Below are positions 3,001 to 58,813 of a stretch of 64,000 nucleotides of DNA, in pieces (the first letter of the stretch is position 1; each line of letters opens with the position of its first letter). A program made the position numbers and the translations under genes. Origin of the DNA: Schmidtea nova. Taxonomy: Eukaryota. The notes beneath the pieces are model-generated. The model searched no databases. It saw only the letters and a program-made list of their open reading frames with translations, and had not been told where the DNA came from. The stretch covers positions 293,632,001 to 293,696,000 of the forward strand of contig CM097883.1 in the NCBI GenBank assembly GCA_044892505.1, written 5' to 3'.

Positions 3001-3191
3001 CGGGTGTACGCACTCTTTTTCATTTTATTTTTATTTTTACCCATAAAAATCGCTATCAATTCCGGCTAATTATGCACGACAAAACTCTTTCTTTATGTTT
3101 GTTTTTCACTTTCCCCATAAAACTACTTTCAAATCCCGGCTGAGCTCTCTGTTATTATTGAATTCGCTTTTTCTTACAACAATCAGTTTAT
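1..3191 (-). mobile_element. Degraded 5' internal region of LTR retrotransposon A (runs off the window start)
   Basis: Lies directly downstream (minus strand) of an LTR and a tRNA-Pro-like PBS. Minus-strand frames are coding-like but full of stops; a YDIIIG motif near 315-330 resembles an aspartic-protease C-terminal motif. Confidence 0.6.
1600..2930 (-). repeat. Degenerate 39-bp tandem repeat (13-codon unit, about ISVNNINSVKISC on the minus strand)
   Basis: Unit tgatgttattcactgaaatacaacttattttaacactat recurs roughly 30 times. ORFs 1574-1777 and 2060-2332 show the 13-aa periodicity. Confidence 0.85.
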
Positions 3192-3215: not shown

Positions 3216-4629
3216 TGCTGGGTTTATGGGTGGGTTTTAAATAATTAATAATAAATAAATAATAAATAATTAAACAAATAATGATAAATAAGTATACTAG
3301 GGATTCCGCACCCATAACCATACATAAAATGACTACTACACGCGTATGCCCTTGACTATTCCCTACTAGTCAAGTTGGTACTGCATACGGTGGTGGAAAA
3401 ATGATGGGCAGGTGAGCTCCGTTACCGAAACTACTCCCCATTTATTCTCCCCTCGGATTCGCGCTGCCGATAGAAGGTCTTACGCTTGATTCTTTATACC
3501 GGTCGACTTAAATTTCGCTCGATCTCTAGCTCTCAATTTAATAACCATATCCTACGTGACTTGGTGATTGACCACAACTAACTACCTAGATGTATTCGTA
3601 ACTAATACAACATTTGGTGTACATTCGTACTTCGAACATTCCGTGTGCATTCCCCGCCTTTACAAATTATTTACTATTCCAGTTTTATTAAATTAGTCAC
3701 TCACCATGACGTGGAACTACTGAGCTCCACAGCCACGGATTCACCCTCGTGGATTGCACCACAGAGGGACGCCCCTATTTAGATTTTAATCGGGAATCCC
3801 TTAAGCAAAGATTTAGCCTCAAAACTTTATTGTGACCACTGAACAACAATTGACCCAACACATATCACCAAAATAACAAAAATACCCGCTCAAATTTGAT
3901 CCACACGACTGGCGAAATCAAAACCAAAATTTTGCTCTCAGTAAATTAATGCCAAGTAAGTTTAGATTGTGATTTTTCAACATCTATTTATACTAATTTC
4001 ACTGACGCTTACATATTTTGTTGTTTACATAATTTATTAATGATTTAAACTTACTTATTAGTTTTAATAAGTGAGCATTTGTTTATATTTCATAAATTTA
4101 ACTTTATTATTTGATTTATTTATTTTCGAAAATATTTGTTTTTAATTATATTAAATTAGGTGTGTATCTATTGTTTTATCGTGCATTTATTGATTAAAAC
4201 AATTTGATTTTAAATCTATTTACATTCCTATCTCCGTTAATTTTGCGATATTTCAATGGGGATTTATTCTATAATTTTTAATAAATTATTTTCTTTATTC
4301 TGATACCGATTTTATTCTTTGATCATGCTTTTCATAATCACTTTACAAGCACTGATCTTCCCCATTCAATTCTCGTGCGATCCTTCGTGTGTAAATCCGA
4401 CCTGCACTCAAATTGTGTGCTCTCTTTTGAGATGCCTCTTTTTTATCGCTTCAACCCTATCTTGACCGACTTAAAGGATGTGGTTCGTATGACTACTATT
4501 GTAGTTAACTGTTTTTATTTTCCCTTGCGTTATTTTACTGCTTAACGTCTTGTCGTGCGTTTCTCTTTGTATGTATTTAATTTTTAATAAATTTTAATAA
4601 AATTTATTTTTGATTTCACCAGCCCAACA
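3216..4629 (-). mobile_element. 5' LTR of element A (~1.4 kb; TGCTGGG...CCCAACA on +)
   Basis: TG...CA ends with a short inverted repeat and an adjacent PBS. Homologous along most of its length to the solo LTR at 57485-58813. Confidence 0.85.
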
Positions 4630-36497: not shown

Positions 36498-36586
36498 AAC
36501 GATTTTAGGCGGGATTATCGGCCATCGCTTTGACTGAGGTTATCTCGAAATTTTCGGCAAAATTTGACTTACCTAAATGATAACAT

Positions 36587-37575
36587 TGTTGGGTTATTGG
36601 GTCGTTGGTGACTTTATGATTAACAAATTATTACCCTGACTCCAAAACGTGCTCTTTATTGACCCACAATAACAACTGACAACAGGAAATTTTATTGATT
36701 ATCACAAATAACTTCGATTTACAATGAACTGACCAAATTCAAACTACAGCTGATTATACAGTGCTTATTACGACACTATAGTGAAGAATAGCACTAGTGT
36801 ATAATCGATGTTCGAAATCACTCACTGCTGGGGAGTATAACAATTGGTAATTTGACTGGTTGTTTTCTTTATTTGACTTGGATTTACTCTCTGAATTTTA
36901 CTAGCTTTATTTTCTCAAACGCTTGAATAAGCTCCTGCTGCTTATCCCTTAGTTTCTGGTTTCAATTATTGGATTCTCCTTTTGACTCTTCTTTAACTTT
37001 CTCTGGACGTTTTTCTGCTTCCTTTTTAATGAATTTTACTAGCTTTATTTTCTCAAACGCTTTCTCTCAAATATTTTCTCTAACCACTTCTGTATACAAT
37101 GTTGTGTCTTTTTTCTGAGATGCTTCCTCCTTTTATACTTCTTCACTTTGTAGCACTTAAAATTATCAGCTGTTGTTACATTTTTCCAACATGATTTTCC
37201 ATTCATTTTCTCAGCAACGGAGTTATCTTTGACAGCTGTCAAGATAACCTCTGTTTTTCTCCTTTTTGCCGCTTCGGCTTGTTTGTTTTTGCCCACATTA
37301 TCTCTGACCGGTTGTCAAGATAAAATTCTTGTTGTTGTTTTTGTTTTTCCCAACTTTAGAATTTCTTCCTATTTGCACTAGTTAATTAGTGCTGACCTCT
37401 ATTTCGTTTTGCTTGTCTGATTTCTTTTCTTTTGTTTCCCCTTCTCATTTCTCATTCCTTTTTACTTCCGTTTTCTTTCCCAGGCTCCAATCAATCGTGT
37501 CATTCCCCATGACAATTTTCCCCCAAGTAATTTTGTTTATTTATTATATTATTTTGAATTTAGGTATCCTCAACA
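36587..37575 (-). repeat. 3' LTR (989 bp)
   Basis: TGTTGGG...CCTCAACA on +; identical by eye to 51971-52960 except for one C indel near 37285/52670. Confidence 0.98.
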
Positions 37576-37577
37576 TA

Positions 37578-37589
37578 TCTCCCCCCTTT
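37578..37589 (-). promoter_or_regulatory. Polypurine tract AAAGGGGGGAGA
   Basis: Purine run 2 nt upstream of the 3' LTR on the minus strand. Confidence 0.9.
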
Positions 37590-37866
37590 AAAAAAATTCG
37601 TCCTCGAATTAAAATCTTAAGTTATCTTTCGTACAATGCCCCCACTATTATTCTCCAATAAACGCTTCTCTATAATATTCTAATTTATTATTTTTACATA
37701 AATACTAGTTTACGATAATAGGGATAACAATTTTCATACTAACTGTAATAACAATAGCACTACCCATTTTAATAATGATAATTATCGTAGTGATAATAAA
37801 TATACTAATATTACAAATTTAAATTAATTCCTATAATTTTATCATCAGTATTGACAATAGTGATAA

Positions 37867-38295
37867 NNNNNNNNNNNNNNNNNNNNNNNNNNNNNNNNNN
37901 NNNNNNNNNNNNNNNNNNNNNNNNNNNNNNNNNNNNNNNNNNNNNNNNNNNNNNNNNNNNNNNNNNNNNNNNNNNNNNNNNNNNNNNNNNNNNNNNNNNN
38001 NNNNNNNNNNNNNNNNNNNNNNNNNNNNNNNNNNNNNNNNNNNNNNNNNNNNNNNNNNNNNNNNNNNNNNNNNNNNNNNNNNNNNNNNNNNNNNNNNNNN
38101 NNNNNNNNNNNNNNNNNNNNNNNNNNNNNNNNNNNNNNNNNNNNNNNNNNNNNNNNNNNNNNNNNNNNNNNNNNNNNNNNNNNNNNNNNNNNNNNNNNNN
38201 NNNNNNNNNNNNNNNNNNNNNNNNNNNNNNNNNNNNNNNNNNNNNNNNNNNNNNNNNNNNNNNNNNNNNNNNNNNNNNNNNNNNNNNNNNNNNNN
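37867..38295. other. Assembly gap (N run) inside the element's 3' non-coding region
   Basis: N characters flanked by (AAT)n-like low-complexity sequence. Confidence 1.
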
Positions 38296-38369
38296 ATAAT
38301 AATAATAATTTTATTAATTAATTTAGTTATCTTTATAATAAAAATTTTTTTTTTTTTTTTTTTAATTCA

Positions 38370-38580
38370 TTTTGCTATCTTGATGGCACTTATGTGCCTT
38401 CCATTTTTGTTTTTACTTCACCGCTATCCTGACTAGTTGTCAAGATAGCGGAATGTTTTTTTTTGTCCTTTCTGTGCCTGTGGCATTTATTGCCAAAAAA
38501 ATTGCCTCGCCGCTATCTGTCCAGATAGCAATTTAAAATTTGGTTTCGTTGGAATGTCGATTTTATAAAATCGACATTCC
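38370..38580. other. Cluster of five hairpins/palindromes, including a perfect 30-bp palindrome at 38551-38580
   Basis: ggcac-ttat-gtgcc; ccgctatcctgac-tagtt-gtcaagatagcgg; tggca-tttat-tgcca; gctatctg-tc-cagatagc; ggaatgtcgattttataaaatcgacattcc. Confidence 0.85.
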
Positions 38581-40275
38581 TTCGGATATTTCGTCATTAT
38601 TTTATGTTAAAAATAAATGTAAGTTTATTTATTATTTTTTTTTTATATGTATTAATAATAATAAAATAATAATGTTTTATCCGTTATAATAATGGCAATA
38701 TTTTCTTTTAAAAACTATAATTTATAATAATCCCTAACAACAATAACAATTTTAATGATAATTATAATGATGATAATAATAATAATTGAAATAATAATAA
38801 TAAAAATTAAGAAATTTGAATCTAAAATTGATGGTTTATCCGTAGTTATGAATGAAAATCTGAAAAAGCAGTACAAAGGTATGATACTATTAAACATTTC
38901 TAGAATTTGTCAGAACATCTATATAACAATGTTATCAATTTTGCAATTTTGAAGAATGGTTGATAAAATCGCCTTTGAATTCAGGCCGTATTATTTTTTT
39001 TTTGAGCATCCACAAAGTCAGGCGACGTTTTTGGTATCAAAATGTTAAGACATCTGTTCTTATTGAACTTGAACTTTCTATCACAATGTCAATTTTAATT
39101 GGTTTTACAATTTGGATTTTTACGAAAAGAATGGCCAACTCAATGATTGTTTTATATTATTTTGCTCCCACGCTTATACGTATGATTTTATTATTATTTT
39201 TTTTTTTTTAATTTAAATTCATCATCCTCACTACTGTCCACAATTGTAACAATATTAATACTAATGATAATAATAATACTATGATGATGATGATAATAAT
39301 AACAACATTAATAATAATAATAAAATAATAATATTCATAATAATAATAATAATAATAAATCGTAATATAATACTAATAATAATAACACTGATAATAATAA
39401 TGATGATATATAATATGATGGTGAAGATTTATTTTATTCTATTTTATTCTTTCAATTCTATCTTACTTCAATTCTATCCTGCTATTTCATTACCATTTAT
39501 TACCATTATTAATCCTATATTGACTCTGGTTTATAATTTTAAATTATTTCATTTTATTTAAACCTGCATTTGTTTATGATACTTTTTAAATATTTAATTT
39601 TTTTAATTTAATTTAATTTTTGTTTTATTTAATAGTTTTAATTATTTACTACTCTGATTTCATTATTTTGTATATATATATACATATATTTTACTTTATT
39701 ACACTTACCTACCTACCCTTATCATAGGTGTTATTAATTATTTTAAATTATCTCACCAGCTGGTTACGCCTGTGCTGCAGGCTGGTAGGGTAATTGGTTT
39801 TGAGAATCCAAATCCCGAAGTTCGAGATCTGCATTCTGAAAACCCTATAATTATTAAATTTTTTTATTTTTATTTTTATACATTTATTATATTAAATATA
39901 TATATTTTTATTTATACTTAAATACATATTTATATTACCTGAGTGACGTCCTATCGAACTTCTACTACAGGCGTATTAGTATCGTAATTTTTACTATACT
40001 CAATTATATATATTGTCATATATTTTATCATTACTATACAATTAATTAATTGATACTTCTAATTTTTTTTTTCACTGAAATTAATTTTACTCTAGGAACT
40101 ATGGGACTATCAATTTAATTTTTCGCAGAAATTAATATTTACTATTTTATTTTATTTTATTATTTTTTTTTGAATTTTTAATATTTAGATAATTTTGGGA
40201 TATTAATCATATTTTTTTTTTTTTTTTTTTTTTTTTGGGAAAATAAATAACAATAAGACTTTCTTTAATAAAATT

Positions 40276-41691
40276 CTATTTATCAATTACAATTTTGATA
40301 GTTTGGTTTCTTCCTCTATACGTGACGACAACCTTTGTTGCTTCCAATTCCTCACCATTGAACGTGATCATCTTATCGACCACTATTCCTTCTTTTGTTT
40401 GATTTCCTTTTTCAACACTATTTTGTTGCATCATTATTTTGTCCATTTCCACAATTGCATATTTAAATAAATCAAGTTTTTTCTCAACCATCATTTTCGC
40501 AGTTTTCTCACGAGCAATATGCATGTGTTCCACCATGTGAATGTCTTGTTCCATTTGCTGAACTTCTGCTTTCCTCTTCTCTTTTGGTTCCTCCATCTGC
40601 TCACTGGTTGTTGGAGCCTTTCTTTTCCTATACTCTTCTAACGAATATTTTCTTTTGCTGGTTGTTTCAGCACACTCTACATCATCCTGCCATTCATTTT
40701 CTATGGCCAAATAAATTCTTCTAATTGCATCAGTGTCTTCTAATGCCGTATGATTCCCTTTTTGCATTCTGATGCCACATATTTCTTCGGCTACTATTGA
40801 CAATTTATACCATTGCCCGTTCCTTGTGACTCTTCTTTTTGTCAATGCTCGAGCTGCCGCCAAATCGCGAATACCCCATAGATCCCTTGTCTGTACTCCA
40901 CTGTACAATAGTTCGCTTTGGAGATCATGTCCAACCAAGATTTTCCTTGCCGTTAATTGCTGAATTTTCCTCTGACTCTTGTATTGATCATCTTGATTTC
41001 TTGACATCTTCTCTGTGATGCCGTGAATTTGGGTAACGTAATTTTTTAGCTTTTCTCTGGGGGTTATTAATGAGTTATACAATATTCTTCCGTCATAGTT
41101 TATTAAACAAATAGACAGCGGAACCATCTTGTTTTGCTCACTTACGCCATATTCCGCGTCCATGAACATAATATTTTTTCTAATTTCTTCTTTTGTCATT
41201 TGTTTTCTCAAAAATGATTTTCGGTGCTTTAACATTTCTTCGGTTATCGGGAGTAACCTATTTTCTTCTTCATTGGTCATAATTTGTTCTAATGCCGGGA
41301 TTGTTGGAGCTGGTCCTCGGCATTCTAAAACAATGCAAGCCGTTCCATTGGCTGCTCGCATCTTCTTATGCCATATTTCTTTTGATATCTTCCATGATGA
41401 ATTAGTTTCCAATGTTTGTAGAACCGTTGCATCATTCTCTAAAATTTCTACTCTTCCTTTAAAAACATGAACCTCCCATGTCTCTTCGTTTCTTCTTATT
41501 AACACTTCTGAAAATTTCGTATTGGATTTCCATTCCAATTCCACCATACATATTCTCATTTCTTCATTCCCTAACCTTACCCAATTAGGAATTTTCAAAT
41601 TTTCTTCTATTACGATAACTTTGTCTGTATAGCTTCTTCTTTCTTGATAATATTTCCCGTATAATCTTGCTGGTTTGTTGATTTTTTCCAT
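40276..41691 (-). CDS. ORF2: 471-aa protein with a possible cupin-like N-terminus, a REX4/ISG20-like DEDDh 3'-5' exonuclease (aa ~174-333) and a charged C-terminus
   Basis: ExoI FMDAEYG (D178, E180), TQIHGIT, ILVGHDLQSE (E260 at the ExoII position), ExoIII HTALEDT (H314, D319). Motif order and spacing match REX4/ISG20. Confidence 0.85.
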   Translation of the reverse strand: MEKINKPARLYGKYYQERRSYTDKVIVIEENLKIPNWVRLGNEEMRICMVELEWKSNTKFSEVLIRRNEETWEVHVFKGRVEILENDATVLQTLETNSSWKISKEIWHKKMRAANGTACIVLECRGPAPTIPALEQIMTNEEENRLLPITEEMLKHRKSFLRKQMTKEEIRKNIMFMDAEYGVSEQNKMVPLSICLINYDGRILYNSLITPREKLKNYVTQIHGITEKMSRNQDDQYKSQRKIQQLTARKILVGHDLQSELLYSGVQTRDLWGIRDLAAARALTKRRVTRNGQWYKLSIVAEEICGIRMQKGNHTALEDTDAIRRIYLAIENEWQDDVECAETTSKRKYSLEEYRKRKAPTTSEQMEEPKEKRKAEVQQMEQDIHMVEHMHIAREKTAKMMVEKKLDLFKYAIVEMDKIMMQQNSVEKGNQTKEGIVVDKMITFNGEELEATKVVVTYRGRNQTIKIVIDK

Positions 41692-41971
41692 TCTTCCTTT
41701 AGATTTAATTTTGATCTTTTTTTTTTTTTTTTTTTTTTTCTTTAAAAATTTTCCAAGTCAAACTCTGAAAACAACCGCCATCTTTATATCCAAAAATTCT
41801 CTCCCCCTACAGTGTGATTATTCGACCAATCAAATTACATCAATACAATTTAAATTTTAACAACATATTTTACAACAAAAGATTATCAATTGACTATTAA
41901 AGAATCATTAACTAAAGAAATATAAGGGAAATAATACTGTATATTGTCATTACATGCAAAATAGTAGCTTA

Positions 41972-44900
41972 CTACACCCTTGATTCCAACCACATTGATA
42001 TCTGCGGCTTAGAATATTGAAAATCACAATTAGAATTGTTTCTTTTGTCAGTTCGTGAAATGAGGATAAAGCAAACGAGCAAGATCACTCTTTGTCTTGC
42101 CCTTATGATACATACAGAGAACATATCAACACAATTGTTAGTGAATGAATTTTCTTTATAGTTTAATGAAAAGTTTTCGATTTTTATACATGAAAGAGTT
42201 AATGGTAGAGTCAGATTGTGATCAAGGGTTTCTTTAGAGGGTTGATCGAGAACGAAATAAATCTGTCTGTCTTTAATGCAAATAGTTTGCCATCGGTCTG
42301 GATTGGTTTTCCCTTTGCAGTATTGGTTTGCTATAAGGAGTTTGCTTGTTTGTGATTCGGTTCCTGAGTTCTGAGTACTGACTCTCGCTCTGTTTCGGTG
42401 TTCTTTTCCCTCGACCTCAGCTTTATATGAAACGATTATTGTAGTATCACAATTTTCAATTTGAACTTGATTCGTTTTATTCCAGTATATCATCTCAATT
42501 TGAACATTTCTTTCAAACAATTGATTGTTTGTATAAATTCCTTTATTACGAAGTGGTTTTTTGTAATTGTTCATTGACAGATTAAGAGTGAGAACTACTT
42601 TCATTAAGTATACGTCTATTTTCTCTAAAGATGGTAATTTATTGACCGCATCTGGTATATCCATTTTTATTCCAACTGTGTTCGTTACCATATTTATTAA
42701 AACTGTCGTTATGAATAAAACTTTATTCATATAACTCAATGGAGTTGGATTTTTCTGGAACTTTTGCCGGATTTCTATTTCATCATTTGTTTTCTTTTGT
42801 TTATTTCGTAGCTGATGTTCCAGTTCAGGCACTTTCTTACATCTATTGGCATGAACTACAATTGTTTCTGCTTTTTTATTATTAATTGGTCGCAATTTTA
42901 GATTTGTTGCAGTCGCATCACAGACTGTATACGGACCTTTGAATGGTCTTTGTAATTTTGTTGAGAGTCCCTTTGTTGGCTCTGGCTTATTTAGATAAAC
43001 TAGGTCGCCAATTTTTATTCCGTGCTCATGCGCTTTTTTATCATAACTTTCTTTATATTGCTCCTGTCGATATTTTATTTTTAATCCGGCTTGAGTCCAA
43101 GCGGATTGTAAACGTTCTTGCAGAGCAACTTTATAATTTGGAATCTCTAAATATTGGGAAGTTGGTGATTGGAACTCTAAATCGATCGGCATATTATTTC
43201 GTCTTAGGTACATAAGATAAAAGGGCGTTTCTCCCGTACTCTCATTTACTGAATTTCGATAGGCATATAAGCATGGTCTAATGAACAGATCCCAGTCTTT
43301 TTGCTTTCGATTCACATAGGATGAGATCATATTAATTAATGTACCATTAAATCTTTCCACTAACCCATCTGTTTGTGGATGATATGGTGATGTGCTCAAT
43401 TTATATATACCAAATAATTCTGTAATAGATTTAAACAGATCACTCTGAAAGTTTGTCCCTTGATCTGTTAGCAATTTCTTTGGAACGCCATATCTAAATA
43501 TGATTTCTTCAACAAATATTTGTGCAACAGTTTCTGCCTTTTGGTTTGGCATAGCAAACGCTTCTGGCCATTTGGTTAAATAATCACAGAATACCAAAAT
43601 GTATTTATTTCCATTCGTTGTCTCGGGTAAAGGCCCGATAATATCCATTGCTGAAAATTCCATTGGCGCTGCTGGTATTGGCATTGGTTTTAGAGGAACC
43701 TTTATTTTCTTTCCAGTATTTCTTCGAGTCAGGCATATTTTGCAAGTGTTGCACCATTGCTTTACATCCTGTTCCATTGTATTCCAGAAATATTTTAGTT
43801 TTATTCGCGACAGCGTTTTTCTTGCTGACAAATGTCCTCCCAATGCCCCGTCATGGTACTGTAACAATAATGTATTTCGATGTATTATTGGAACTACTAT
43901 TAACAATTCATCATTTTTAATATATTTTAATATACCTCTGTGAATAACATATTTGTGTTTTTCCTCGATTAATTGTTTCAATTCTTTATCTTTTCTCATT
44001 ATTACTGTATGTTTTATTATTTGTTTCAGCTCCTCATCCATTTCTTGATCTCTCTGTAGCTCTGCCATATTATTTGCTGCTTTAACTACTGCAAATACAG
44101 TATCTCTTAAATTTATTTCTTCCTGGTTATTATTAATTTCCCCATTTGGAATTCTAGACAAGGTATCAGCATTAGCATTTGATTTTCCTGTTCGATATTT
44201 GATTTCAAAGTCATATTCTTGCAAGGCTAACGACCACCTAATTAATTTACTTGCTGCATCTCGATGCTTCATTAACCATTGTAATGGATTATGGTCTGTA
44301 TAGACAATGAATTTTCGGCCAACTAAGTACTGTCGAAATGTTGTTATGCCATATACTAGAGCAAGAGTTTCTTTTTCGATTGTTGAATAGTTTTTTTCAT
44401 GTGGTTTCAATGATCGACTAGCATATGCGATTACATGATCTTTTTCTCCTTCAACCTTTTGTCCTAATACCGCTCCCAACGCAAAACAGCTTGCGTCCGT
44501 CATTAACATAAATGTCTTTGTGAAATCAGGACCTCGTAATATTGGATTCATCATTAACTTTTGTTTGAGTATTTCGAAAACATCCTGCTGAGCTTTGCCC
44601 CACACGAATTTTGTGGTTTTCTTTAATAGCATCGTTAATGGTTGAGCAAAATGTGCAAAGTTTCTAATAAATTTTCTGTAATAGCTTGCTAACCCGAGAA
44701 ATTGTCTAATATCATCAACATTTTTTGGAGTTGGATAATCTTTAATTTTCTTAACATTTTCTGGATTTGGTTGTAGACCTTTTCGTGAAATGATATGTCC
44801 AATATACACCACCTCTGACTTTCCCCATTCACATTTTGATGGTTTGATTTTAAGATTTGCTTCTCTGAGCCGTTTAAATACTGTTTCCACATCTCTCATG

Positions 44901-47900
44901 TGCTCTTCGAAATTACCTGAGAAGATTATAATATCATCAATATATACCAAGGCGTGTGGAATATCTCGCAGCACAAAATTCATTCCTCTTTGAAATGTCG
45001 CTGGTGCACCTGTTAAACCAAATGGTAAAACATTAAATTCATACAAACCTTTTCCATCTGAAAACGCTGTTTTCCCTTTATCTGTCTCTTTAACTTTGAA
45101 TTGATTGTAGCCTTTGTTTAAATCAATAACAGTAAAATATTGAGCTTCTCCCATTTTGTCAAACATTTCCTGAGGAACCGGAATGGGATACGTATCCTTT
45201 CTTGTCACTTGATTCAGTTTTCGATAGTCAATACAAAATCTCAGTTCACCGTCTTTCTTTTTGACTACAACAATAGAGGAAGAAAATGGTGAAAAACTGT
45301 CTCTAATAATATGGAATTCTTTCATAGCCTTTATTTGTCTATCGCTTTCGTCTTGATGCGCATACGGAATTCTGTATGGTCGTAATTTAATTGGAGTTTC
45401 ATCAATTAATGGAATTTCATGTTCAATTATATGAGTTACTCCCAAATCATACTCATGTTTCGCAAAAATATCTTGATATTTTCTCAACAATTTTGTAAAT
45501 GTTTGTGTTTGCTCTTGCGTCAACTCTGCACTGTCAACTTGGGGTTCTTTGTATATTTTAATATTTTTTGGTAATCTTTTATTATTGATTTTTAGGATTT
45601 TTGTTAGCTTTCCTAATTTCGTTTTTGGTTTAAATGACACTTCTTTGTCGCTATTGTTAGTGATGCGAACAGGAATTAATTGATCTTGAACTTTCACTAC
45701 TTCGTCGCATATTGGAGTATCATATTTGGCAATTAAATTCTCACTTGGTTGAAATATAAATTCATCGTCTGGAACTCCCATTGTATTCACATAACAAATA
45801 ACTTCACTCTGAGGTGGTACTCTTAACGTTTGATTTAGAAACACATCTCCCGTTTCATGAATAACTTTTCCTGTTTTTCCTACAATTAGATTTCCGGTTT
45901 TCAAATCAAGAGAGACTCCTTCCAATTGCTCCAACACATCCATCCCTACCAAACACATTACTGGGCTATCTTTCATTATTAGCGCATTATGAACAATTTC
46001 TTTATTTCCAATATTGAATTTTACTCTGATCTGTCCAATGATATTTAATTTGTTTTTCGTCATTGATCGTACAACTTCTTCTGTGCTTTTCATTCGTGCT
46101 CTTTCCCCTGAATTTAATAATTTATCTGATAATATTGTATTGCTTGAGCCTGAATCTATTAATGCTTCGACTCTATGTTTATTCACTTGTATCCATATTC
46201 TTGGCTGTCTTCCTTTATTTCCAATTGTCATTAATGCATAATTTCCTGGTAATCCCAGCATGTTTCTCCTTTCAATTTCCGCACTAGTTGGTGCGATTTG
46301 CTCATTTGTCAATTCAATGTTTTCAACTGGTCTCATTTCTTTTAACTTCTCTACTGGATATATTGGTGCTGTTGGTAGAAAAGTTTTTGGAATGCATAAT
46401 CGACTGAATGTGTCTGTTTCACTTGTTTGTGGTACCGATTGTAATAAATTCAAAGATTTAGATTTTTCTCGTATATCATTAATTTTAATTTTACTGTTTT
46501 TATAATAATATATTGGAGGTACTTTTACTTTACCCCCATTCCCACTCTCGCTGTCCGAACTCGAATCAATGTCTCTTCCGTCATTATTTAGTCGTGACTT
46601 GACTTTCCCCATCTCTTTATATTGATGCTTTGTAATTACAAATCTTGCCAGACATGGAATACATCCGATAATCAGTTTCCAGGACCATCCCGAAATAACA
46701 TATAGCTGATGAGTAGTTAGTATTTGAGATATTATCACTTTAATCACCACGAACATAACATAAATTCCAATTAATCCTGCACATGCTTGTCCCAAAAACA
46801 TGAATTTCCCCCATATCTTTTTCATCGTATTGTACGTTGCTTTCTTATAATGATCTGGTGTTAGTAAATAATCATAATTTACTTTGCCTTCACCACTTGG
46901 TAATATAGTATCAATCATTTCAGTAATGACTCGTTCTTTCTTTGATGGAAATAGTAGATTTCTTCGGGCTTCTTCAACATCTTCTTGAGAATACAACTCA
47001 GTTTGTGCTAATTTGTCCAATGATGTAAAATTTATTAAATATTCAAGTTTTGTTAATTCTAATTTTTCTGGATTTCTTACTCCTTTATGATCTGGTAATG
47101 ATATCCACGAATCTGATGTTAGTCGATATAATGGTGCGAGCAATCGGTTACATTTTAAAAGTTTAGGTTTCGCGTCTTCTTCCAACAATATTCGAGTTAT
47201 TGGCTCCATGAATCTCAATTTACCATTAACACTTACTGGCAATTCATTGGTACATTGCTCGTACTTTATAATTTGCACGGGAATCTCGTTGCATTTATAG
47301 CTATACAATGCTTCTCCAAATACTCTTGCAAACACACCGTTTTCTGATATTAACATAGGTGCTACCAAGTTTGGATTTGTGACTGCCATCGCCATTCTGT
47401 TCCGTAGTATTTCTTTATTCAACTTACAGTCGTTTAATATCATTTCTCTGTAAATATTTTCCATAATACTTTGACTGTAGTGGAACAAATAGTCTATTTT
47501 GTTATTAAAATAATTTGTCAATTTGATATCCGTACTATGTATTTGGACTTGAGCTTCCTCGACTCTTTTCTTGGATACATAAATTCCTTTATAATTGGTC
47601 TCATACACCGTTTGACCACATTTATTTACCACATTTTTTCGAATAAATCTCATACCGTCATCTAATAAAGTTGACATCAAAACAACTGGAGTTTTTCTGG
47701 TTCTCAATGGGGTAATTCTGATTGTCATGTCCGGTTTTGCCTCCACATTCAAATTTTCCGGTCTTTCTCTCAACTGTTCTCCACTCATTTCATTAAAACT
47801 CATTGTTTTCAAATGTATTAAATTACATAGATTTGTCTTAACTTCGTACACCAAAATTGATTCTCCTGTTTGACAGCTAGCCTGCTTCATATTGCAGAAT

Positions 47901-50900
47901 GGATGCGTTTGTAACTTGCCTGTGTCGTCATCAAAAGCTCCTTGGAATTCTCTCAATTCCGTCAAATACTCTTCCATCACAACAATTTGATCAATAACTT
48001 CTCCATTCATTTTGTACGGTTCTCCTTTACAATCCCCATTAGCCTTTATTGTTCCTTTTTCGATAATTGTTTCTCGTATAGCATGATTTAATTTAGCTTT
48101 CAATTTAACCTCGGGGCTAATTTTCACTTCCCCTGTTTGAAACGCAGCCATGCAATTTTCTGGGTTTACATCAACTGGCCTTGGGATTGAATACATTTTA
48201 ATTAGTGATGTGTGACTCCATTTGCCACAATAAAACACAAAGCTCGTTCTCTTTACAATGCACTCTCTTACTACCGCATGTCTAAAGCCTGATTCTTGGT
48301 ATACATGATACTTTACATCATTTTCAACTGTTAAACTCATTGGGTGTGCATCAGAACATTCTGTCATGTCCACCATGGAATAAATCTTTCCCATTTTGGT
48401 TTGAGAACAATCGTACGCAATTAAAGATGTTGTTTGCGTCGTAATCGCACATAATATTATGATCATAAACATTATAAATGGAAGTTTCATAGGTTTACCT
48501 CTCGGTATTCCTTCGTAACTTTCTCTCTTTTCGACTGATGATTCTGTTTTTTGTTTAACTAATTTCTCCCAGCCTCCAATTTCCTTTATCCATTTGCCCA
48601 CATGCTTATACAATACTTTGCTCGCCTTTTTGATTACTTCATCTCGTTTTTCCATATTTAAATAATCGTGTGTCCCGATTTCTAACAAAATATAACTCGT
48701 AATTGTCAATACTAAATCTCTATCCATTTCTCCTGTCATCATATTGGTTATCACTCCATCATCACAGAATTCCTTGTTGTCTTTTACATATCTCAAGACC
48801 ACATAAAGTCTCTTTTTCAACTTTTTTGCAATTTTTCTCACATATAATTCTACTTGTGTTTTCTCTGCTGCTTCGCCATATAATTCATTTGCCAGCGCAC
48901 GTACAACCTTTTCAGTCTCTTTTAATTCCTTCTGACCTCTCTCACCTTGGAGTCTCTGTATTATTTCACATCTCACCTCGTATAAATCCTTGCGTTGTCT
49001 TTCCTCCGTAATATTATCAATCTCCATTTCTGTCATATACGCTTCATTTTTAACTTCCGTTTTTATTATACTTCCATCAATTCTCTGCTCAGTTTCCTGT
49101 TCCTCTCCATGTTCTGTCATTTCTTGTTCCTCTGATATTTCATCCTCATTATCCATTGTTTCACTGCCGAACTCTGGTAATTCAATTTTATAACCTTTTT
49201 CTACTTCATCTGTATCCACTTGTTTCACTGCAATTATATCATTAATAAAATTTTGATCCGTAAGAAATCTATCTTCGTTACGCTTTCGTGGCATACATCC
49301 ACAATCAAATAAATATTCATCATCGTCTAGCTCAAAACCTTTATACGTTAGCACAATTATTCCATCATTGCCCATGATTTCTGCTGTTCTTCGACGAATT
49401 TTATTCACTTTCGTATACCAATGTTCATCCGTATATTCTACTCCTTGACCATTTATTTTTAACAGTACTACGAATGGCTCATTATAAATCCCTTCTTCCC
49501 TGAATTCTTGACCAAATTTTTGAATAAGAGTTTTTATTGTTTTACCATATTCGTTTTCCGCATTCATATAGGGTCTAACACAGTCTAGAATTTTTAACTT
49601 GTCTTCTACTTTGAGTTCTAAATTCAAAATATTGTTTAATTTATCAATAATGTCACCTGTGTTTCCTTTAAGCAATGCTTCCATTAGTTCAAATCTGATT
49701 TCGTCAGAGTCATTTGTTACTGTTTTTTCCTTGGCGATCATATTCGTCATTTGCATTTCATTTTCACCGCCAGGAATTAATCCATAATCTACCAAGAATT
49801 CGCCATCCTCTAATACTTGATCCATAAATTTAAGTTCCACCGCCCAACTTTCACACTTGTGCATTACTTCTCTTTTTAGCTCGCGTACTTTCTCGTATGC
49901 ATCGATTTTATAGTTGGATTTTGTACCATCTGGAGCATTCATTTGGATAAATATAGGATCTAACCATTTATTTTTCCGTAGATATTGCCCAAATATTCTC
50001 ATAAAATCTTTGAATACATCTCGTTTTTCCACACTTGCTGCATAACATTCTGCACAAAGTTTAATAACAGTTTTAATTTTTGTCAGACTTAAAGGTATTT
50101 TAGTTAGCCTCGTAAATAATTCTGTTATTTTCTGGGAATTTACGTCTGGTTCCGCAACTAATTTTCTGATTTTGGCAATAAATACAGTACTCCTTTCACT
50201 TTGTATGTCGGCTTTAGCTTTATTGATTTGTACTTTATCTGATTCTGACTCGCTTTCGCTCAACTCTTTCCTCGTCATCATGTGGGTATCTGTTTCTTCA
50301 TCCGATTCAAATTTGGCTATCAATTTATTCAGTTTTTGGTTCAATTGTTTAACATCGCTTTCGATCTTTTCTCTAAAACCATCTTGCTGAACATAGGCTA
50401 TATTATCATTCGATGGATTTTCATCTTGAAATCTTATTGTTCGCTTTAATATTGGCCTTTGAAATTTATTCGTATTTCTTGGACAGGATCTTGCAATATG
50501 TCCATAATTTCTACACAAATGGCATTGAATTTGTCCGTTCAAATTTACATTGTCTCTCTGTGGTGAAGGTGAAGTTGAGGGTGATCTTGATCTTGAAAAA
50601 CAATTTCTGGAAACATGTCCTTTTCTACCGCAGCGATAACATTGCACTTCATTAACATTGGATTTTATATCAGGAACTGTTCTCCGAAAATTGGTTCCCC
50701 TATCGTTGGTACGATAATCTTGGGTTATTCTTCTGGGTGTACTATCGGAATTATTTTTGAACCAACACTGGTTTGCATAATGGCCAATCTTCTTGCAATT
50801 TTCACACTGGATCACTCTGGATCTCTCAGCGCCTTGGAAATTACGGCTTGGTCTATTTATATTTAACTCGGTTCTCCATTTGGGTGATGGACTTTTTGAT

Positions 50901-51574
50901 CGCTGGAATCTATTTTCTGGCTCCCAATTGTTTTGGGTTGGTGTAATTGATCTTTCCCTTTGAGCTGGAATAATCGCGAACACATCAGATTTGTTTTTGG
51001 TGCTCTTCAAATTCAATTCGATTTTCATTGCCTTTTTTACTAGTTCATCAAAATTATCATAATCTACACAGCATAATGCGGTTTTTATTTCTTTGTTTAT
51101 TCCTGACAAAAATTGGTCTTGGATTAATTCTTGCATTTGTTGGGCTAGGCCTGGTTGTTTTGAGTCTTCTTCAAATGATTTACTTGCGAGGGTTGACAAA
51201 TGATACGCAAATTCGCTCACTGTTTCATTTGGATTTTGAACTCTACTATAAAACTTTTGACGCATTAATCTTTTGATATCTCCTCCGATAAGTTTTGCAG
51301 CTAACGCATCTTTCAACTTTGCCCAATCATTACCAATTAATTTTTTATCAATCTGTTGCCAAACCTCTCTAGCTGCTCCTTTAAGATATAAAGGTAATCT
51401 CTGAATCATAATCGCTTGAGACCATCCGTACGCCGTTGCATACATGTAGTAATCACTCATAAAATCTACAAAAATAACCGGATCTCCTCCATATTGTTCC
51501 ACAGGTAATCTTTGACAACTTGCAAAATCATTATTTTCTTTAATAACTGATACTGGCAAATCTTCACTACTCAT
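41972..51574 (-). CDS. ~3200-aa Gag-Ubl-Ubl-Bcl2-Env-PR-RT-RH-IN polyprotein (first ATG at 51574; the ORF track starts at GTG 51619)
   Basis: Three CX2CX4HX4C knuckles; ALIDSG protease (46148-56); YIDD RT (44933-44); TDAS...EKETLA...TDH RNase H; HHCC and D,D,E integrase; GPY motif. No stops or frameshifts. Confidence 0.97.
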   Translation of the reverse strand: MSSEDLPVSVIKENNDFASCQRLPVEQYGGDPVIFVDFMSDYYMYATAYGWSQAIMIQRLPLYLKGAAREVWQQIDKKLIGNDWAKLKDALAAKLIGGDIKRLMRQKFYSRVQNPNETVSEFAYHLSTLASKSFEEDSKQPGLAQQMQELIQDQFLSGINKEIKTALCCVDYDNFDELVKKAMKIELNLKSTKNKSDVFAIIPAQRERSITPTQNNWEPENRFQRSKSPSPKWRTELNINRPSRNFQGAERSRVIQCENCKKIGHYANQCWFKNNSDSTPRRITQDYRTNDRGTNFRRTVPDIKSNVNEVQCYRCGRKGHVSRNCFSRSRSPSTSPSPQRDNVNLNGQIQCHLCRNYGHIARSCPRNTNKFQRPILKRTIRFQDENPSNDNIAYVQQDGFREKIESDVKQLNQKLNKLIAKFESDEETDTHMMTRKELSESESESDKVQINKAKADIQSERSTVFIAKIRKLVAEPDVNSQKITELFTRLTKIPLSLTKIKTVIKLCAECYAASVEKRDVFKDFMRIFGQYLRKNKWLDPIFIQMNAPDGTKSNYKIDAYEKVRELKREVMHKCESWAVELKFMDQVLEDGEFLVDYGLIPGGENEMQMTNMIAKEKTVTNDSDEIRFELMEALLKGNTGDIIDKLNNILNLELKVEDKLKILDCVRPYMNAENEYGKTIKTLIQKFGQEFREEGIYNEPFVVLLKINGQGVEYTDEHWYTKVNKIRRRTAEIMGNDGIIVLTYKGFELDDDEYLFDCGCMPRKRNEDRFLTDQNFINDIIAVKQVDTDEVEKGYKIELPEFGSETMDNEDEISEEQEMTEHGEEQETEQRIDGSIIKTEVKNEAYMTEMEIDNITEERQRKDLYEVRCEIIQRLQGERGQKELKETEKVVRALANELYGEAAEKTQVELYVRKIAKKLKKRLYVVLRYVKDNKEFCDDGVITNMMTGEMDRDLVLTITSYILLEIGTHDYLNMEKRDEVIKKASKVLYKHVGKWIKEIGGWEKLVKQKTESSVEKRESYEGIPRGKPMKLPFIMFMIIILCAITTQTTSLIAYDCSQTKMGKIYSMVDMTECSDAHPMSLTVENDVKYHVYQESGFRHAVVRECIVKRTSFVFYCGKWSHTSLIKMYSIPRPVDVNPENCMAAFQTGEVKISPEVKLKAKLNHAIRETIIEKGTIKANGDCKGEPYKMNGEVIDQIVVMEEYLTELREFQGAFDDDTGKLQTHPFCNMKQASCQTGESILVYEVKTNLCNLIHLKTMSFNEMSGEQLRERPENLNVEAKPDMTIRITPLRTRKTPVVLMSTLLDDGMRFIRKNVVNKCGQTVYETNYKGIYVSKKRVEEAQVQIHSTDIKLTNYFNNKIDYLFHYSQSIMENIYREMILNDCKLNKEILRNRMAMAVTNPNLVAPMLISENGVFARVFGEALYSYKCNEIPVQIIKYEQCTNELPVSVNGKLRFMEPITRILLEEDAKPKLLKCNRLLAPLYRLTSDSWISLPDHKGVRNPEKLELTKLEYLINFTSLDKLAQTELYSQEDVEEARRNLLFPSKKERVITEMIDTILPSGEGKVNYDYLLTPDHYKKATYNTMKKIWGKFMFLGQACAGLIGIYVMFVVIKVIISQILTTHQLYVISGWSWKLIIGCIPCLARFVITKHQYKEMGKVKSRLNNDGRDIDSSSDSESGNGGKVKVPPIYYYKNSKIKINDIREKSKSLNLLQSVPQTSETDTFSRLCIPKTFLPTAPIYPVEKLKEMRPVENIELTNEQIAPTSAEIERRNMLGLPGNYALMTIGNKGRQPRIWIQVNKHRVEALIDSGSSNTILSDKLLNSGERARMKSTEEVVRSMTKNKLNIIGQIRVKFNIGNKEIVHNALIMKDSPVMCLVGMDVLEQLEGVSLDLKTGNLIVGKTGKVIHETGDVFLNQTLRVPPQSEVICYVNTMGVPDDEFIFQPSENLIAKYDTPICDEVVKVQDQLIPVRITNNSDKEVSFKPKTKLGKLTKILKINNKRLPKNIKIYKEPQVDSAELTQEQTQTFTKLLRKYQDIFAKHEYDLGVTHIIEHEIPLIDETPIKLRPYRIPYAHQDESDRQIKAMKEFHIIRDSFSPFSSSIVVVKKKDGELRFCIDYRKLNQVTRKDTYPIPVPQEMFDKMGEAQYFTVIDLNKGYNQFKVKETDKGKTAFSDGKGLYEFNVLPFGLTGAPATFQRGMNFVLRDIPHALVYIDDIIIFSGNFEEHMRDVETVFKRLREANLKIKPSKCEWGKSEVVYIGHIISRKGLQPNPENVKKIKDYPTPKNVDDIRQFLGLASYYRKFIRNFAHFAQPLTMLLKKTTKFVWGKAQQDVFEILKQKLMMNPILRGPDFTKTFMLMTDASCFALGAVLGQKVEGEKDHVIAYASRSLKPHEKNYSTIEKETLALVYGITTFRQYLVGRKFIVYTDHNPLQWLMKHRDAASKLIRWSLALQEYDFEIKYRTGKSNANADTLSRIPNGEINNNQEEINLRDTVFAVVKAANNMAELQRDQEMDEELKQIIKHTVIMRKDKELKQLIEEKHKYVIHRGILKYIKNDELLIVVPIIHRNTLLLQYHDGALGGHLSARKTLSRIKLKYFWNTMEQDVKQWCNTCKICLTRRNTGKKIKVPLKPMPIPAAPMEFSAMDIIGPLPETTNGNKYILVFCDYLTKWPEAFAMPNQKAETVAQIFVEEIIFRYGVPKKLLTDQGTNFQSDLFKSITELFGIYKLSTSPYHPQTDGLVERFNGTLINMISSYVNRKQKDWDLFIRPCLYAYRNSVNESTGETPFYLMYLRRNNMPIDLEFQSPTSQYLEIPNYKVALQERLQSAWTQAGLKIKYRQEQYKESYDKKAHEHGIKIGDLVYLNKPEPTKGLSTKLQRPFKGPYTVCDATATNLKLRPINNKKAETIVVHANRCKKVPELEHQLRNKQKKTNDEIEIRQKFQKNPTPLSYMNKVLFITTVLINMVTNTVGIKMDIPDAVNKLPSLEKIDVYLMKVVLTLNLSMNNYKKPLRNKGIYTNNQLFERNVQIEMIYWNKTNQVQIENCDTTIIVSYKAEVEGKEHRNRARVSTQNSGTESQTSKLLIANQYCKGKTNPDRWQTICIKDRQIYFVLDQPSKETLDHNLTLPLTLSCIKIENFSLNYKENSFTNNCVDMFSVCIIRARQRVILLVCFILISRTDKRNNSNCDFQYSKPQISMWLESRV
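46620..48424 (-). other. In-frame glycoprotein domain, chuvirus-like / herpes gB-like class III fusogen
   Basis: Begins LIAYDC after a hydrophobic signal-like segment; EC..KRT...FYCGKWSH matches the chuviral C..R.IYYCGMHSH pattern; C-terminal WGKFMFLG..AGLIGIY...GWSW membrane region. Confidence 0.8.
48551..48997 (-). other. In-frame Bcl-2-like domain
   Basis: BH2-like WIKEIGGWEKLV (compare Bcl-xL WIQENGGWDTFV), BH3-like VVRALANEL, BH1-to-BH2 spacing preserved but NWGR absent. Confidence 0.7.
49280..49957 (-). other. Two in-frame ubiquitin-like domains (aa ~555-625 and ~715-780)
   Basis: ELKFMDQVLEDGEFLVDYGL and VLTYKGFELDDDEYLFDCGC compared with ubiquitin [20 protein letters not shown]. Confidence 0.75.
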
Positions 51575-51947
51575 TATGGGTTCCTTTTTACTTTTGCTTC
51601 GTAAATTATATCGACTCACTTTAATAAATTATTTTCTCAAATTTCGCAAAATCTAAATTCAAATTTATTACCACAATTAATAATTTACCTTTTCACAATT
51701 TCGTTAAATAATCTCTCTTTATCACAATTATTTTCACTCTCTTTTCAATAAATTTTATTTCAATAATTCTTCACCACTTTATTTCGCCGGATATATCCCA
51801 ATTACTTTTTCAATCGCTCCTCACCAACGTTTGATCACGTCGGATTATGGTACAACTGTTTTATTCAATACTATTTTCACCAACCTCTGATCACGTCGTA
51901 TATATATAACAATTACTTTTCTTCAATAATCTTTTCACCAACGTCAG

Positions 51948-51965
51948 ATCACGTCGGGCTCACCA
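51948..51965 (-). promoter_or_regulatory. Primer binding site, tRNA-Trp (TGGTGAGCCCGACGTGAT)
   Basis: 17/18 match to the tRNA-Trp PBS TGGTGACCCCGACGTGAT, 5 nt from the 5' LTR. Confidence 0.92.
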
Positions 51966-51970
51966 AATAA

Positions 51971-52960
51971 TGTTGGGTTATTGGGTCGTTGGTGACTTTA
52001 TGATTAACAAATTATTACCCTGACTCCAAAACGTGCTCTTTATTGACCCACAATAACAACTGACAACAGGAAATTTTATTGATTATCACAAATAACTTCG
52101 ATTTACAATGAACTGACCAAATTCAAACTACAGCTGATTATACAGTGCTTATTACGACACTATAGTGAAGAATAGCACTAGTGTATAATCGATGTTCGAA
52201 ATCACTCACTGCTGGGGAGTATAACAATTGGTAATTTGACTGGTTGTTTTCTTTATTTGACTTGGATTTACTCTCTGAATTTTACTAGCTTTATTTTCTC
52301 AAACGCTTGAATAAGCTCCTGCTGCTTATCCCTTAGTTTCTGGTTTCAATTATTGGATTCTCCTTTTGACTCTTCTTTAACTTTCTCTGGACGTTTTTCT
52401 GCTTCCTTTTTAATGAATTTTACTAGCTTTATTTTCTCAAACGCTTTCTCTCAAATATTTTCTCTAACCACTTCTGTATACAATGTTGTGTCTTTTTTCT
52501 GAGATGCTTCCTCCTTTTATACTTCTTCACTTTGTAGCACTTAAAATTATCAGCTGTTGTTACATTTTTCCAACATGATTTTCCATTCATTTTCTCAGCA
52601 ACGGAGTTATCTTTGACAGCTGTCAAGATAACCTCTGTTTTTCTCCTTTTTGCCGCTTCGGCTTGTTTGCTTTTTGCCCACATTATCTCTGACCGGTTGT
52701 CAAGATAAAATTCTTGTTGTTGTTTTTGTTTTTCCCAACTTTAGAATTTCTTCCTATTTGCACTAGTTAATTAGTGCTGACCTCTATTTCGTTTTGCTTG
52801 TCTGATTTCTTTTCTTTTGTTTCCCCTTCTCATTTCTCATTCCTTTTTACTTCCGTTTTCTTTCCCAGGCTCCAATCAATCGTGTCATTCCCCATGACAA
52901 TTTTCCCCCAAGTAATTTTGTTTATTTATTATATTATTTTGAATTTAGGTATCCTCAACA
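51971..52960 (-). repeat. 5' LTR (990 bp)
   Basis: Near-identical partner of 36587-37575; adjacent to the PBS. Confidence 0.98.
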
Positions 52961-54704
52961 ACATTAAACTTTATTAGGTCTTTCATACGCTCTGACCATC
53001 ATACTGCCGCGTTTATTTGGACAGTCCTTTTGACTCAAACTTCTTATTTCACCATCAATCGCATTCATTACCAGTTCATCATTCATAGATTTTATTAATG
53101 AGTGGATTTATCATCAACCTACTGTCCAATCATTGTTACGGCTTTTGTTGTTGAGCTACGAATTTGTAGTCACTCATCGCTACACATATCGAACGTGGTG
53201 GTTATATCATCGATCAAACTCATTTAATTGTAGCTGCGGGTATGATCATTTACTTATTATCAATCGCCATTCACTACTTATGAAATCAGTCACTCACTCT
53301 CTAAACACATTCATTCGGCAGCACATTAAACAAGCTTCTACATCATCCGACCTCAGAAAATTCTCTGATTGAATCCTCGTCATGGTTATTTGTCAATTTG
53401 ATGCACTGAAACATTCCAATTCATGACGTTCGACTCTCGCCAGCCTCATTTCATAACGACTTTACATTTTCGGGGTGAAATCATGCTATTAAGGCCCTTG
53501 CAGGGTTATGTTGTCCTCTCATCCTTGGTATGGATATATCCCTTCCCGTTCCATTAGCGCTGTAACGCCGCATCAGCCATCACCGCCAGGTGATGCGCTG
53601 AGAGGCCCAGTTTTCGCCCTTCAAATCCTACGACCTCCGGGTTGCGACCTTATAGATTTTAAACATGAGTAATACATGAGGGTTTAACACTGACATGATA
53701 TCAAAAACAAATCACCAACGTACTTTTTATTTCGTTTGATTCTACAGATTTACTTGATACAACACAAGACTTCACTGATAAAAATGACATCACATTCTGA
53801 ATTTGATCACTACTTATGTATTGTTTTGGCCTCGCCTTCTGAACAATCAGAATTCAGTACGGTTGCCTATTTGTCAGTCATTTATTTTTTATTGTTTGTT
53901 TTTCTTTCATTAAACCGGTGAGTTTTGGTGGTTACTCATTTGCTTATGACTTTATGACTTTTTTATTTTAGTTCTCTACATACTATCCGAGCGGTCCACC
54001 CCGGCATTTGCTGCGTTCAGCAATTTCATTTTACTCTGGTAATTCTATTGGCAGATTTTATTATTCATCGCTTTTCTGTTTCAGGCATCAGTGGTTTTCA
54101 ATTACTCAATGGTAATTTATTATATATTGTGCTTTCTTTAGTGCTGACATTTTGACAGCTCTTGTTCTCGCCTGATTGGTTTTGCTCGATCATCACGCGG
54201 CTATCTCATCTCGGTCTAGTGGTAAGTTCTGTATTGTTATTACTGTTTTAGTATTATGTTATTACTTTCAGGTTTCGCCGTGCTTCGATGATTATCTGTC
54301 TATCGCTGATGGTTTGCAATTTATTTTATTTAATTTTATTACTATTTTCCTATTTAATTTGTACTTTCTTTTAGATTATTTACGATTCGCTGGGCCCAAC
54401 AAGTATAACAAACGTACTCACCCATGACGATCCAACTAGGGAATTGATTATCCAAATTGGTGGTGATCAACAATGGCATTTTATTGATTTTCTTTTCTTT
54501 TATATACTCTTACTAGCGGGATTCTCTCAAATTTTCTTTTTAGTTACAGCTTTAGCGAATCTTGGAAAATTCTGAGATTCTCACTATTCTTCACCATAAT
54601 TTTCACTTCATTAGATGCGTAAAATATCATATTCTCGTGCAATATTAATTATATATCTAAATAATAAAATTATTATTTTTTTAAATATAATCTTTAGTTT
54701 TTCA

Positions 54705-57484: not shown

Positions 57485-58813
57485 TGTTGGGTGGTGTTAC
57501 AAAATTTTTTACAGACTTCTAGGGGTTAATATAACCCACAGCGCAACATAAATATTACTCAATCACCCACGTGTACCCTCAGTTCTTCCCCAAATAACTA
57601 GGTTGGTACTGTACACGGTGGCGAGAATCTAGTGAGCAGGTGAGCTCCGTTGCTGAAACTACTCCTCACTAAATTCTCTCTTTCGGATTCTTGCTGCCGA
57701 TAGAAGGACTTACGCATCTACTTTCTTTACGGTCTTATCGTATGATTTTCCTCCTAATGATCTATTACTTTTCGCTATCAACAATATACCTTTATTCCTC
57801 CTCAATTAATTCAACAAAACAATGAATGCTCCTGACAATCCCATTTCCTCTCGTCTAAATTTGGTTCCGGTACGCCTAATCGCCTAACCCTCCGAAGAGA
57901 GTTAGGACGAGAGGTCATTTATCGCCCATCAGGTCGCGATACCATCAGGACATGCCATTAGATATTTTTCCCCGGAGGTTCTGAGGGTTTACCCGCGAAC
58001 AATCATAAAGTTTTAAAAGTCACAACATTTATTGAATACCATTCACATAACATGATTACAGATTACCATACACAAAACAAACCTACTCACCTACGCGACT
58101 GGCTGGCGAAACACGAAATCGACATTTTGCCTTCACTTGCAGAAACTAACTGAGTTAATTCAACTGATTTTTGCGTCTATTTATATTAAAATAGACTGAC
58201 ACCCACGCATGTTTTCATTCAAATGATTCTATTATGATTGAAACTCAATTTATCTGTTTCAATAACCGATTATTTATTTAATTTTTTGTAAATTTAATTT
58301 TACAATTTAATTTATTTATTTCTAAGATATTTGATTTTCATTCCGATAAATGATGTGTGTACCTTGTTTCGGTACATTTATTGATTGATTAAAACAATCA
58401 ACTTTAATTGAATTCTATTTTTATTTCTACCTCTGTTATTTTCCCGATATTTCAATGGGGATTTTTTTTATACTTTTTAATAAATTATTTTCTTTATTCT
58501 GATATCAATTTTATTCTTTGATCATACTTTTCGTTATTTTGTACAGCGATGATCTTCTCCATTCAATTCTCGTGTGGTCCTTTGTGTGTAAATGTGACAT
58601 GCGCTCAAATTGTGGGCTCTCTTTTGAGATGCCTCTTTTCTATCGTTTAAGCCCTATCTTGACCGACTTATCGAATGCGGTTCGTATGATTACTATTGTA
58701 CTTTACTGTTTTATTTTCTTTTGGTAAATTTACTGCGTGTTTTTAAACTTGTTTCTTTTTTAATTTTTGATGAATTCAAACAAAATTCTATTTTTGATTT
58801 CGCCAGTCCAACA
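57485..58813 (-). mobile_element. Solo LTR (1329 bp) of the element-A family inserted in the polymerase pseudogene
   Basis: TGTTGG...CCAACA ends, flanks CCTC/CCTG (3 of 4 TSD match), homologous to 3216-4629. Confidence 0.85.

Follow-up and report, generated by a model that had tools for sequence, protein, structure and literature searches.

A compact Burro-type GAG-ENV-POL retrotransposon with ubiquitin-like, Bcl-2-like, and exonuclease cargo in Schmidtea nova

A 64,000-nucleotide stretch of Schmidtea nova DNA (GenBank assembly GCA_044892505.1, contig CM097883.1, forward-strand positions 293,632,001 to 293,696,000; hereafter, the window) contains a 16.4-kb Ty3/Gypsy long terminal repeat (LTR) retrotransposon that is a compact variant of the planarian GAG-ENV-POL (Burro-type) kind already published. 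The element encodes a 3200-amino-acid (aa) polyprotein in one open reading frame (ORF), with the order Gag, two helix-plus-ubiquitin-like (Ubl) units, Bcl-2-like domain, signal segment, fusogen, transmembrane (TM) segment, protease (PR), reverse transcriptase (RT), RNase H (RH), and integrase (IN). An initial annotation, made from the sequence alone, had described this frame of about 3200 codons and its domain order correctly but had put the architecture forward as a candidate new system. An existing description is found in Arkhipova and Yushenova 2019 (PMC6431247), whose account of planarian Burro/GYPSM1 elements gives a single ORF ordered Gag (three CCHC)-Ubi/SUMO-like-BCL2-env-PR-dUTPase-like-RT-RH-IN, with an in-frame env separating gag from pol, an arrangement termed there the first case of its sort. 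With this architecture already published in 2019, the window element is not a new system. Its features, in window coordinates, are as follows.

36587-52960, minus: whole element, 16,374 bp
51971..52960, minus: 5' LTR, 990 bp, TG...CA ends, one indel relative to the 3' LTR
36587..37575, minus: 3' LTR, 989 bp, from LTR comparison
36583..36586, no strand: target-site duplication, left copy, 4 bp
52961..52964, no strand: target-site duplication, right copy, 4 bp
51948..51965, minus: primer-binding site, 18 nt, matching the genome's tRNA-Trp
37578..37589, minus: polypurine tract, 12 nt, preceding the 3' LTR
41972..51574, minus: ORF1, 3200-aa gag-cargo-env-pol polyprotein, with no stop or frameshift inside
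50375..51574, minus: Gag, aa 1-400, three CCHC knuckles (Pfam and motif positions)
49736..50209, minus: helical bundle plus ubiquitin-like unit 1, aa 456-613
49208..49708, minus: helical bundle plus ubiquitin-like unit 2, aa 623-789, lacking Gly-Gly at its C-terminal end
48548..49030, minus: Bcl-2-fold domain, divergent, aa about 849-1009, with BH2-like W..GGW but not BH1 NWGR
48413..48499, minus: internal signal-peptide-like hydrophobic segment, aa 1026-1054 (hydrophobicity)
46595..48427, minus: gB-like/chuvirus-type fusion glycoprotein, aa 1050-1660, TM at aa 1591-1622 (PF24664, E=9e-89)
45917..46210, minus: aspartic protease, DSG at aa 1807 (Pfam)
45545..45907, minus: conserved linker domain at the Burro dUTPase-like position, homology unconfirmed
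44213..45265, minus: reverse transcriptase (YIDD) and RNase H (Pfam)
42815..43891, minus: integrase, H2C2 zinc finger and core (Pfam)
41972..42757, minus: post-integrase tail, predicted to be a second membrane protein, with hydrophobic stretches at aa 2952-2969 and 3154-3173
40276..41691, minus: ORF2, 471 aa, ISG20/REX4-like DEDDh exonuclease core at aa 176-323 (D178, E180, E260, H314, D319)

Element boundaries and the gag-env-pol frame

The element is a Ty3/Gypsy LTR retrotransposon, as evidenced by its paired LTRs with TG...CA ends, target duplication, primer-binding site, polypurine tract, PR-RT-RH-IN order, and Gypsy-type RT. All of the cis signals that had been called intact were located. 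The LTRs start with TGTTG, finish with CAACA, and differ from each other by the single indel, and the primer-binding site, 5 nt past the 5' LTR, equals the 3' end of the genome's tRNA-Trp plus CCA. A 429-bp run of N (37867-38295) lies in the 3' noncoding part. Also, the leader (51776-51965) holds repeated units resembling the primer-binding site, with a 10-nt core present three times at a spacing of about 57 nt. Elsewhere in the genome, about 2000 pattern matches to tRNA-Trp, the element's primer tRNA, occur near 128.02-128.07 Mb of G000:C3 and beyond (L104-L106); those listed are arrayed in tandem at intervals of about 281 bp.

Pfam matches along ORF1 are, in order, three zinc knuckles (aa 257, 312, and 351), Monjiviricetes_fusion, protease, RT, RNase H, and integrase; there was no match for aa 470-1050 and none for dUTPase. 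The strength of the Monjiviricetes_fusion match bears out the class III-type fusogen of the initial annotation, and an env of gB type, bearing a signal and a TM and lying between gag and pol, places the element in the flatworm GAG-ENV-POL gB-type (C1a) group. The gB-like protein is 69-75% identical across sister families, with a dN/dS of 0.07 in the one pair tested; it has no furin-type R-x-K/R-R site, and a comparison with PDB sequences matched nothing meaningful. The dUTPase-like assignment fared less well: the conserved 120-aa domain between PR and RT has no Pfam or PDB match, and only its position agrees with the published Burro annotation.

The "extra domain" that had been noted after the integrase is probably a second membrane protein. 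A signal-like hydrophobic segment followed by a TM-like one is present after the integrase in four of four sister families and in 10 of 11 relatives, and in relative P0046 an immunoglobulin (Ig) domain stands between the two. The tail of the window family is shorter and less hydrophobic than those of sister families and relatives, and most family members exceed the window copy by 14 codons (frames of 3232 versus 3218 codons). No known family matched the tail in the window or in sister families, while in distant families it resembles FN3, by eye only.

Cargo domains and the exonuclease

Against the cargo region, a word-seeded search gave no match among 4651 candidates of 1760-5600 aa and a single-sequence PDB search gave none, so profiles were required. 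A single-sequence fold was discarded (predicted local distance difference test [pLDDT], 39.6), and alignment A6 was not used for folding because long proteins were misaligned in its Bcl part; alignment A7 is A6 minus 11 rows plus one. Profile searches and models lent modest support to both folds proposed in the initial annotation, namely, a Ubl beta-grasp and a Bcl-2 helical fold with a BH2 motif, for which sequence and structure agree, each modestly. The two helix+Ubl units are homologous to one another (tblastn E down to 1e-11). For the helical bundle preceding each Ubl (pLDDT about 90), no match was listed, although the lists were filled by Ubl; a TFIIS N-terminal fold, a conjecture, was supported by nothing found.

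The Bcl-2-like domain is matched best by pro-survival proteins, namely, Bcl-xL, Mcl-1, and viral Bcl-2. Nevertheless, the BH1 NWGR motif, a signature of the BH3-binding groove, is missing in 12 of 12 aligned members, whereas two of the three host genes listed have it. The Gly-Gly used for conjugation is likewise absent from the C-terminal end of both Ubl units; in unit 1, a Gly-Gly stands before the predicted last strand. Every cargo domain tested is under purifying selection. The Bcl domain is the fastest evolving (32-65% identity between families), and the helix+Ubl unit is more widely spread than it.

Downstream, ORF2 corresponds to the separate DEDDh frame of the initial annotation, as evidenced by an RNase_T match (E=4e-6) and its ISG20/REX4-like core. 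D178, E180, H314, and D319 are present, and the ExoII Asp is replaced by Glu, as it is in sister families. Such a DEEDh variant is active in coronavirus nsp14. ORF2 is under purifying selection and is catalytically decayed in distant families. On the coding strand, A-runs of >20 nt flank ORF2 (about 41717-41738 and 40212-40236, the 3' run about 40 nt past the stop), which may reflect mRNA capture or mere low complexity. Deleted copies of a sister family (L062:473-1462; G000:C1:92179736) have RT in frame with the exonuclease core, in frames of about 2600 aa.

Copies, relatives, and published counterparts

The family is young, intact, and multicopy and has been transposing recently. The best 40 of 4366 candidates in an LTR search were all 98-100% identical. 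The Bcl-2 segment has 42 full-length genome matches at an identity of at least 95%, 19 of which (window included) lie in stop-free frames of at least 3200 codons. Across the coding part, all 10 fetched copies are colinear (94-99.6% identity); ORF1 is stop-free in three of them and ORF2 full length in seven. Moreover, contigs from four of four runs (one study) cover 30 of 30 bins, at an interior depth about 10 times that of the flanks. Three copies stand head to tail, about 15.9 kb apart, at G000:C1:547.58-547.63 Mb.

Related families share these domains. In sister families, whose RTs are 80-86% identical, gB, pol, the Bcl segment, and both of the helix+Ubl units are retained. Cargo varies among sister families in the number of Ubl units (one or two) and in ORF2, which is present in some, missing from others, and decayed in others. 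At an RT identity of 47-49%, more distant families have Bcl, gB, and pol together with a single helix+Ubl unit and, downstream, a DEDD-like ORF. Public (metagenomic) assemblies hold single-ORF relatives of 2694-4057 aa; among the 11 best, the helix+Ubl unit occurs in eight and a Bcl-like match in two. In an RT tree of 60 rows, a quick version without bootstrap, these families and relatives group in a 20-row clade with a Shimodaira-Hasegawa-like approximate likelihood ratio support of 96 (SH-aLRT), which includes the ankyrin-bearing relative P0042. Relatives P0036-P0041, P0043, and P0022 have two or three aspartic protease domains, one of them after the integrase, and P0005 has zinc knuckles and the helix unit fused to a phosphomevalonate kinase domain (E=1.5e-34), another captured cargo.

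As described in section 7 of PMC6431247, Burro/GYPSM1 shares with the window element the one-ORF Gag-Ubl-BCL2-env-PR-RT-RH-IN order, three CCHC knuckles, and accessory ORFs, and its env, which resembles mononegavirus fusion proteins, occupies the matching place. However, Burro/GYPSM1 exceeds 30 kb with an ORF1 of 4873-5140 aa, and its MATH, BIR, and ankyrin features have no Pfam match in ORF1 or ORF2 of the window at E up to 1. Conversely, the window element has two helix+Ubl units, and its downstream DEDDh ORF and predicted post-integrase membrane module do not figure in that section. The window element is thus outside Burro in the strict sense, yet it is built like Burro. Judged by these homologies, its host is of a planarian kind. 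An autonomous giant Burro was not found among the best 68 of 3413 fusogen candidates, whose frames were at most 3401 aa. The best 150 of 1295 BIR candidates all belong to a very high-copy element (e.g., L092:3284-8780 and L093:475-1671), most of them lying in its 399-aa BIR+RING ORF; it also has a protease+ankyrin ORF and a RING-TRAF-MATH ORF. RT and gB were not seen within about 20 kb upstream at six loci, and this element is possibly a nonautonomous, Burro1-like carrier of an inhibitor of apoptosis protein (IAP).

Chary and Hayashi 2026 (PMC13524379) report GAG-ENV-POL gB-type elements in flatworms, nematodes, and bryozoans, including six in S. mediterranea. Two of these, Smed_errantivirus_1 and _2 (C1a), resemble the window element in gene order, env type, and multicopy state (45 and 215 copies). 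From aa 1084, 51 of 64 residues of the window gB (about 80%, counted by eye) are identical to Smed_errantivirus_1, with cysteines at matching places. The main text of that paper contains no occurrence of Bcl, exonuclease, dUTPase, ubiquitin, Burro, or immunoglobulin, so such cargo is unannotated there in the Smed errantiviruses. Its passages on nematode GAG-ENV-POL metaviruses (Sacco 2022) and on mosquito BEL/Pao elements with a chuviral glycoprotein describe gB-like fusogens in LTR retroelements, with env preceding pol in the nematode case. However, these come from other host clades, the mosquito elements are BEL/Pao rather than Gypsy, and neither Ubl nor Bcl-2 cargo is mentioned in those passages. 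As described in PMC5408684, bdelloid rotifer Juno/Vesta LTR elements likewise have a separate 3' DEDD-superfamily exonuclease in a Gypsy-type element (their ORF3), and they have a dUTPase domain between PR and RT. Their exonuclease is RNase D-like DEDDy and replaces env, whereas that of the window is DEDDh and stands alongside env. The literature searched contained no account of an ISG20-like ORF2, a compact form with a duplicated helix+Ubl unit, or a predicted post-integrase membrane protein; these may be covered in Grohme 2018 or Lee 2026.

The rest of the window holds decayed Gypsy pol remnants unrelated to the element (12769-14682, plus strand; 23085-23321, minus strand), a diverged tandem array with a 39-bp unit (1619-2688), and two copies of a dispersed repeat at 82-86% identity (4185-4520 and 58384-58717).

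Proposed mechanism and alternatives

PMC6431247 proposes that Burro elements are integrated proviruses that interfere with apoptosis and ubiquitination. We think it probable that this Burro-type element makes a membrane-threaded polyprotein and travels between cells of its host in enveloped particles. The fusogen would enter the lumen of the endoplasmic reticulum (ER) by way of the signal at aa 1026-1054, the TM at aa 1591-1622 would bring PR-RT-IN back to the cytosol, and behind the integrase a second signal would lead to export of another small membrane protein, leaving the tail luminal. The Gag-Ubl-Ubl-Bcl-2 part would stay cytosolic, with the polyprotein cut by signal peptidase and by the protease that the element itself encodes. 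If left attached, the env signal would occupy the place of a Bcl-2 tail anchor and tie Gag-Ubl-Ubl-Bcl-2 to the budding membrane. Gag and Pol would then both be tethered to a fusogen-bearing membrane, favoring enveloped particles that could fuse into neighboring stem or germ cells. Through its Bcl-2 and Ubl domains, the element would likely prolong the survival of the producer cell or dampen that cell's response or sensing, while ORF2 would likely trim or bind element RNA or by-products that otherwise trigger host sensing.

A more modest view is that the element is an intracellular retrotransposon whose gB-like protein serves only for budding into, or fusing out of, ER or vesicle membranes. 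The single frame for Gag, env, and pol without a frameshift and the missing furin-type site fit this view, and PMC13524379, where it discusses such proteins, calls the extent of infectivity through them unclear. However, the conservation and low dN/dS of gB and the retention of a predicted second surface protein across the clade speak against it, and we consider it unlikely. A further reading, compatible with enveloped spread but less likely than not, gives the Bcl-2-fold and Ubl domains a structural adaptor role in assembly, membrane tethering, or interference with immune signaling in place of apoptosis inhibition. Poxviral Bcl-2-fold proteins that block signaling are a precedent. The degenerate BH1, the absence of Gly-Gly termini, the rapid evolution of the Bcl domain, and the wider spread of the helix+Ubl unit point in this direction, whereas the pro-survival and viral Bcl-2 best matches point away from it, as does the IAP cargo of Burro1, reported second-hand in PMC13465017 to protect stem cells from apoptosis.

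An assembly chimera or a chance juxtaposition of nested elements might be suspected in a repeat-rich, AT-rich genome with an N run inside the element. Yet a 3200-codon single frame, paired LTRs with a target duplication, several independent families, and metagenomic single-ORF relatives leave almost no room for this idea, and a chimeric assembly is ruled out by the 10 of 10 colinear copies. At the opposite extreme, the Burro-type clade might comprise true enveloped flatworm viruses with a two-protein envelope, an env-signal-anchored Bcl-2, and an ISG20-like nuclease, the compact family being the minimal working form; we regard this as doubtful. The envelope would then combine the gB-like fusogen with a post-integrase, sometimes Ig-bearing, attachment protein, and the nuclease would clear element RNA ahead of host sensors. 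Arenavirus NP and coronavirus nsp14 remove RNA before host sensors see it.

The window element bears on an open question from PMC6431247, namely, whether Burro-type elements are infectious and steer the death of host cells. Natural comparisons for addressing it are offered by this 16-kb family through its many young copies, its cargo-variable sister families, and a host type tractable to RNA interference. The predicted post-integrase second membrane protein and the ISG20-like ORF2 are the parts that may be new to specialists.
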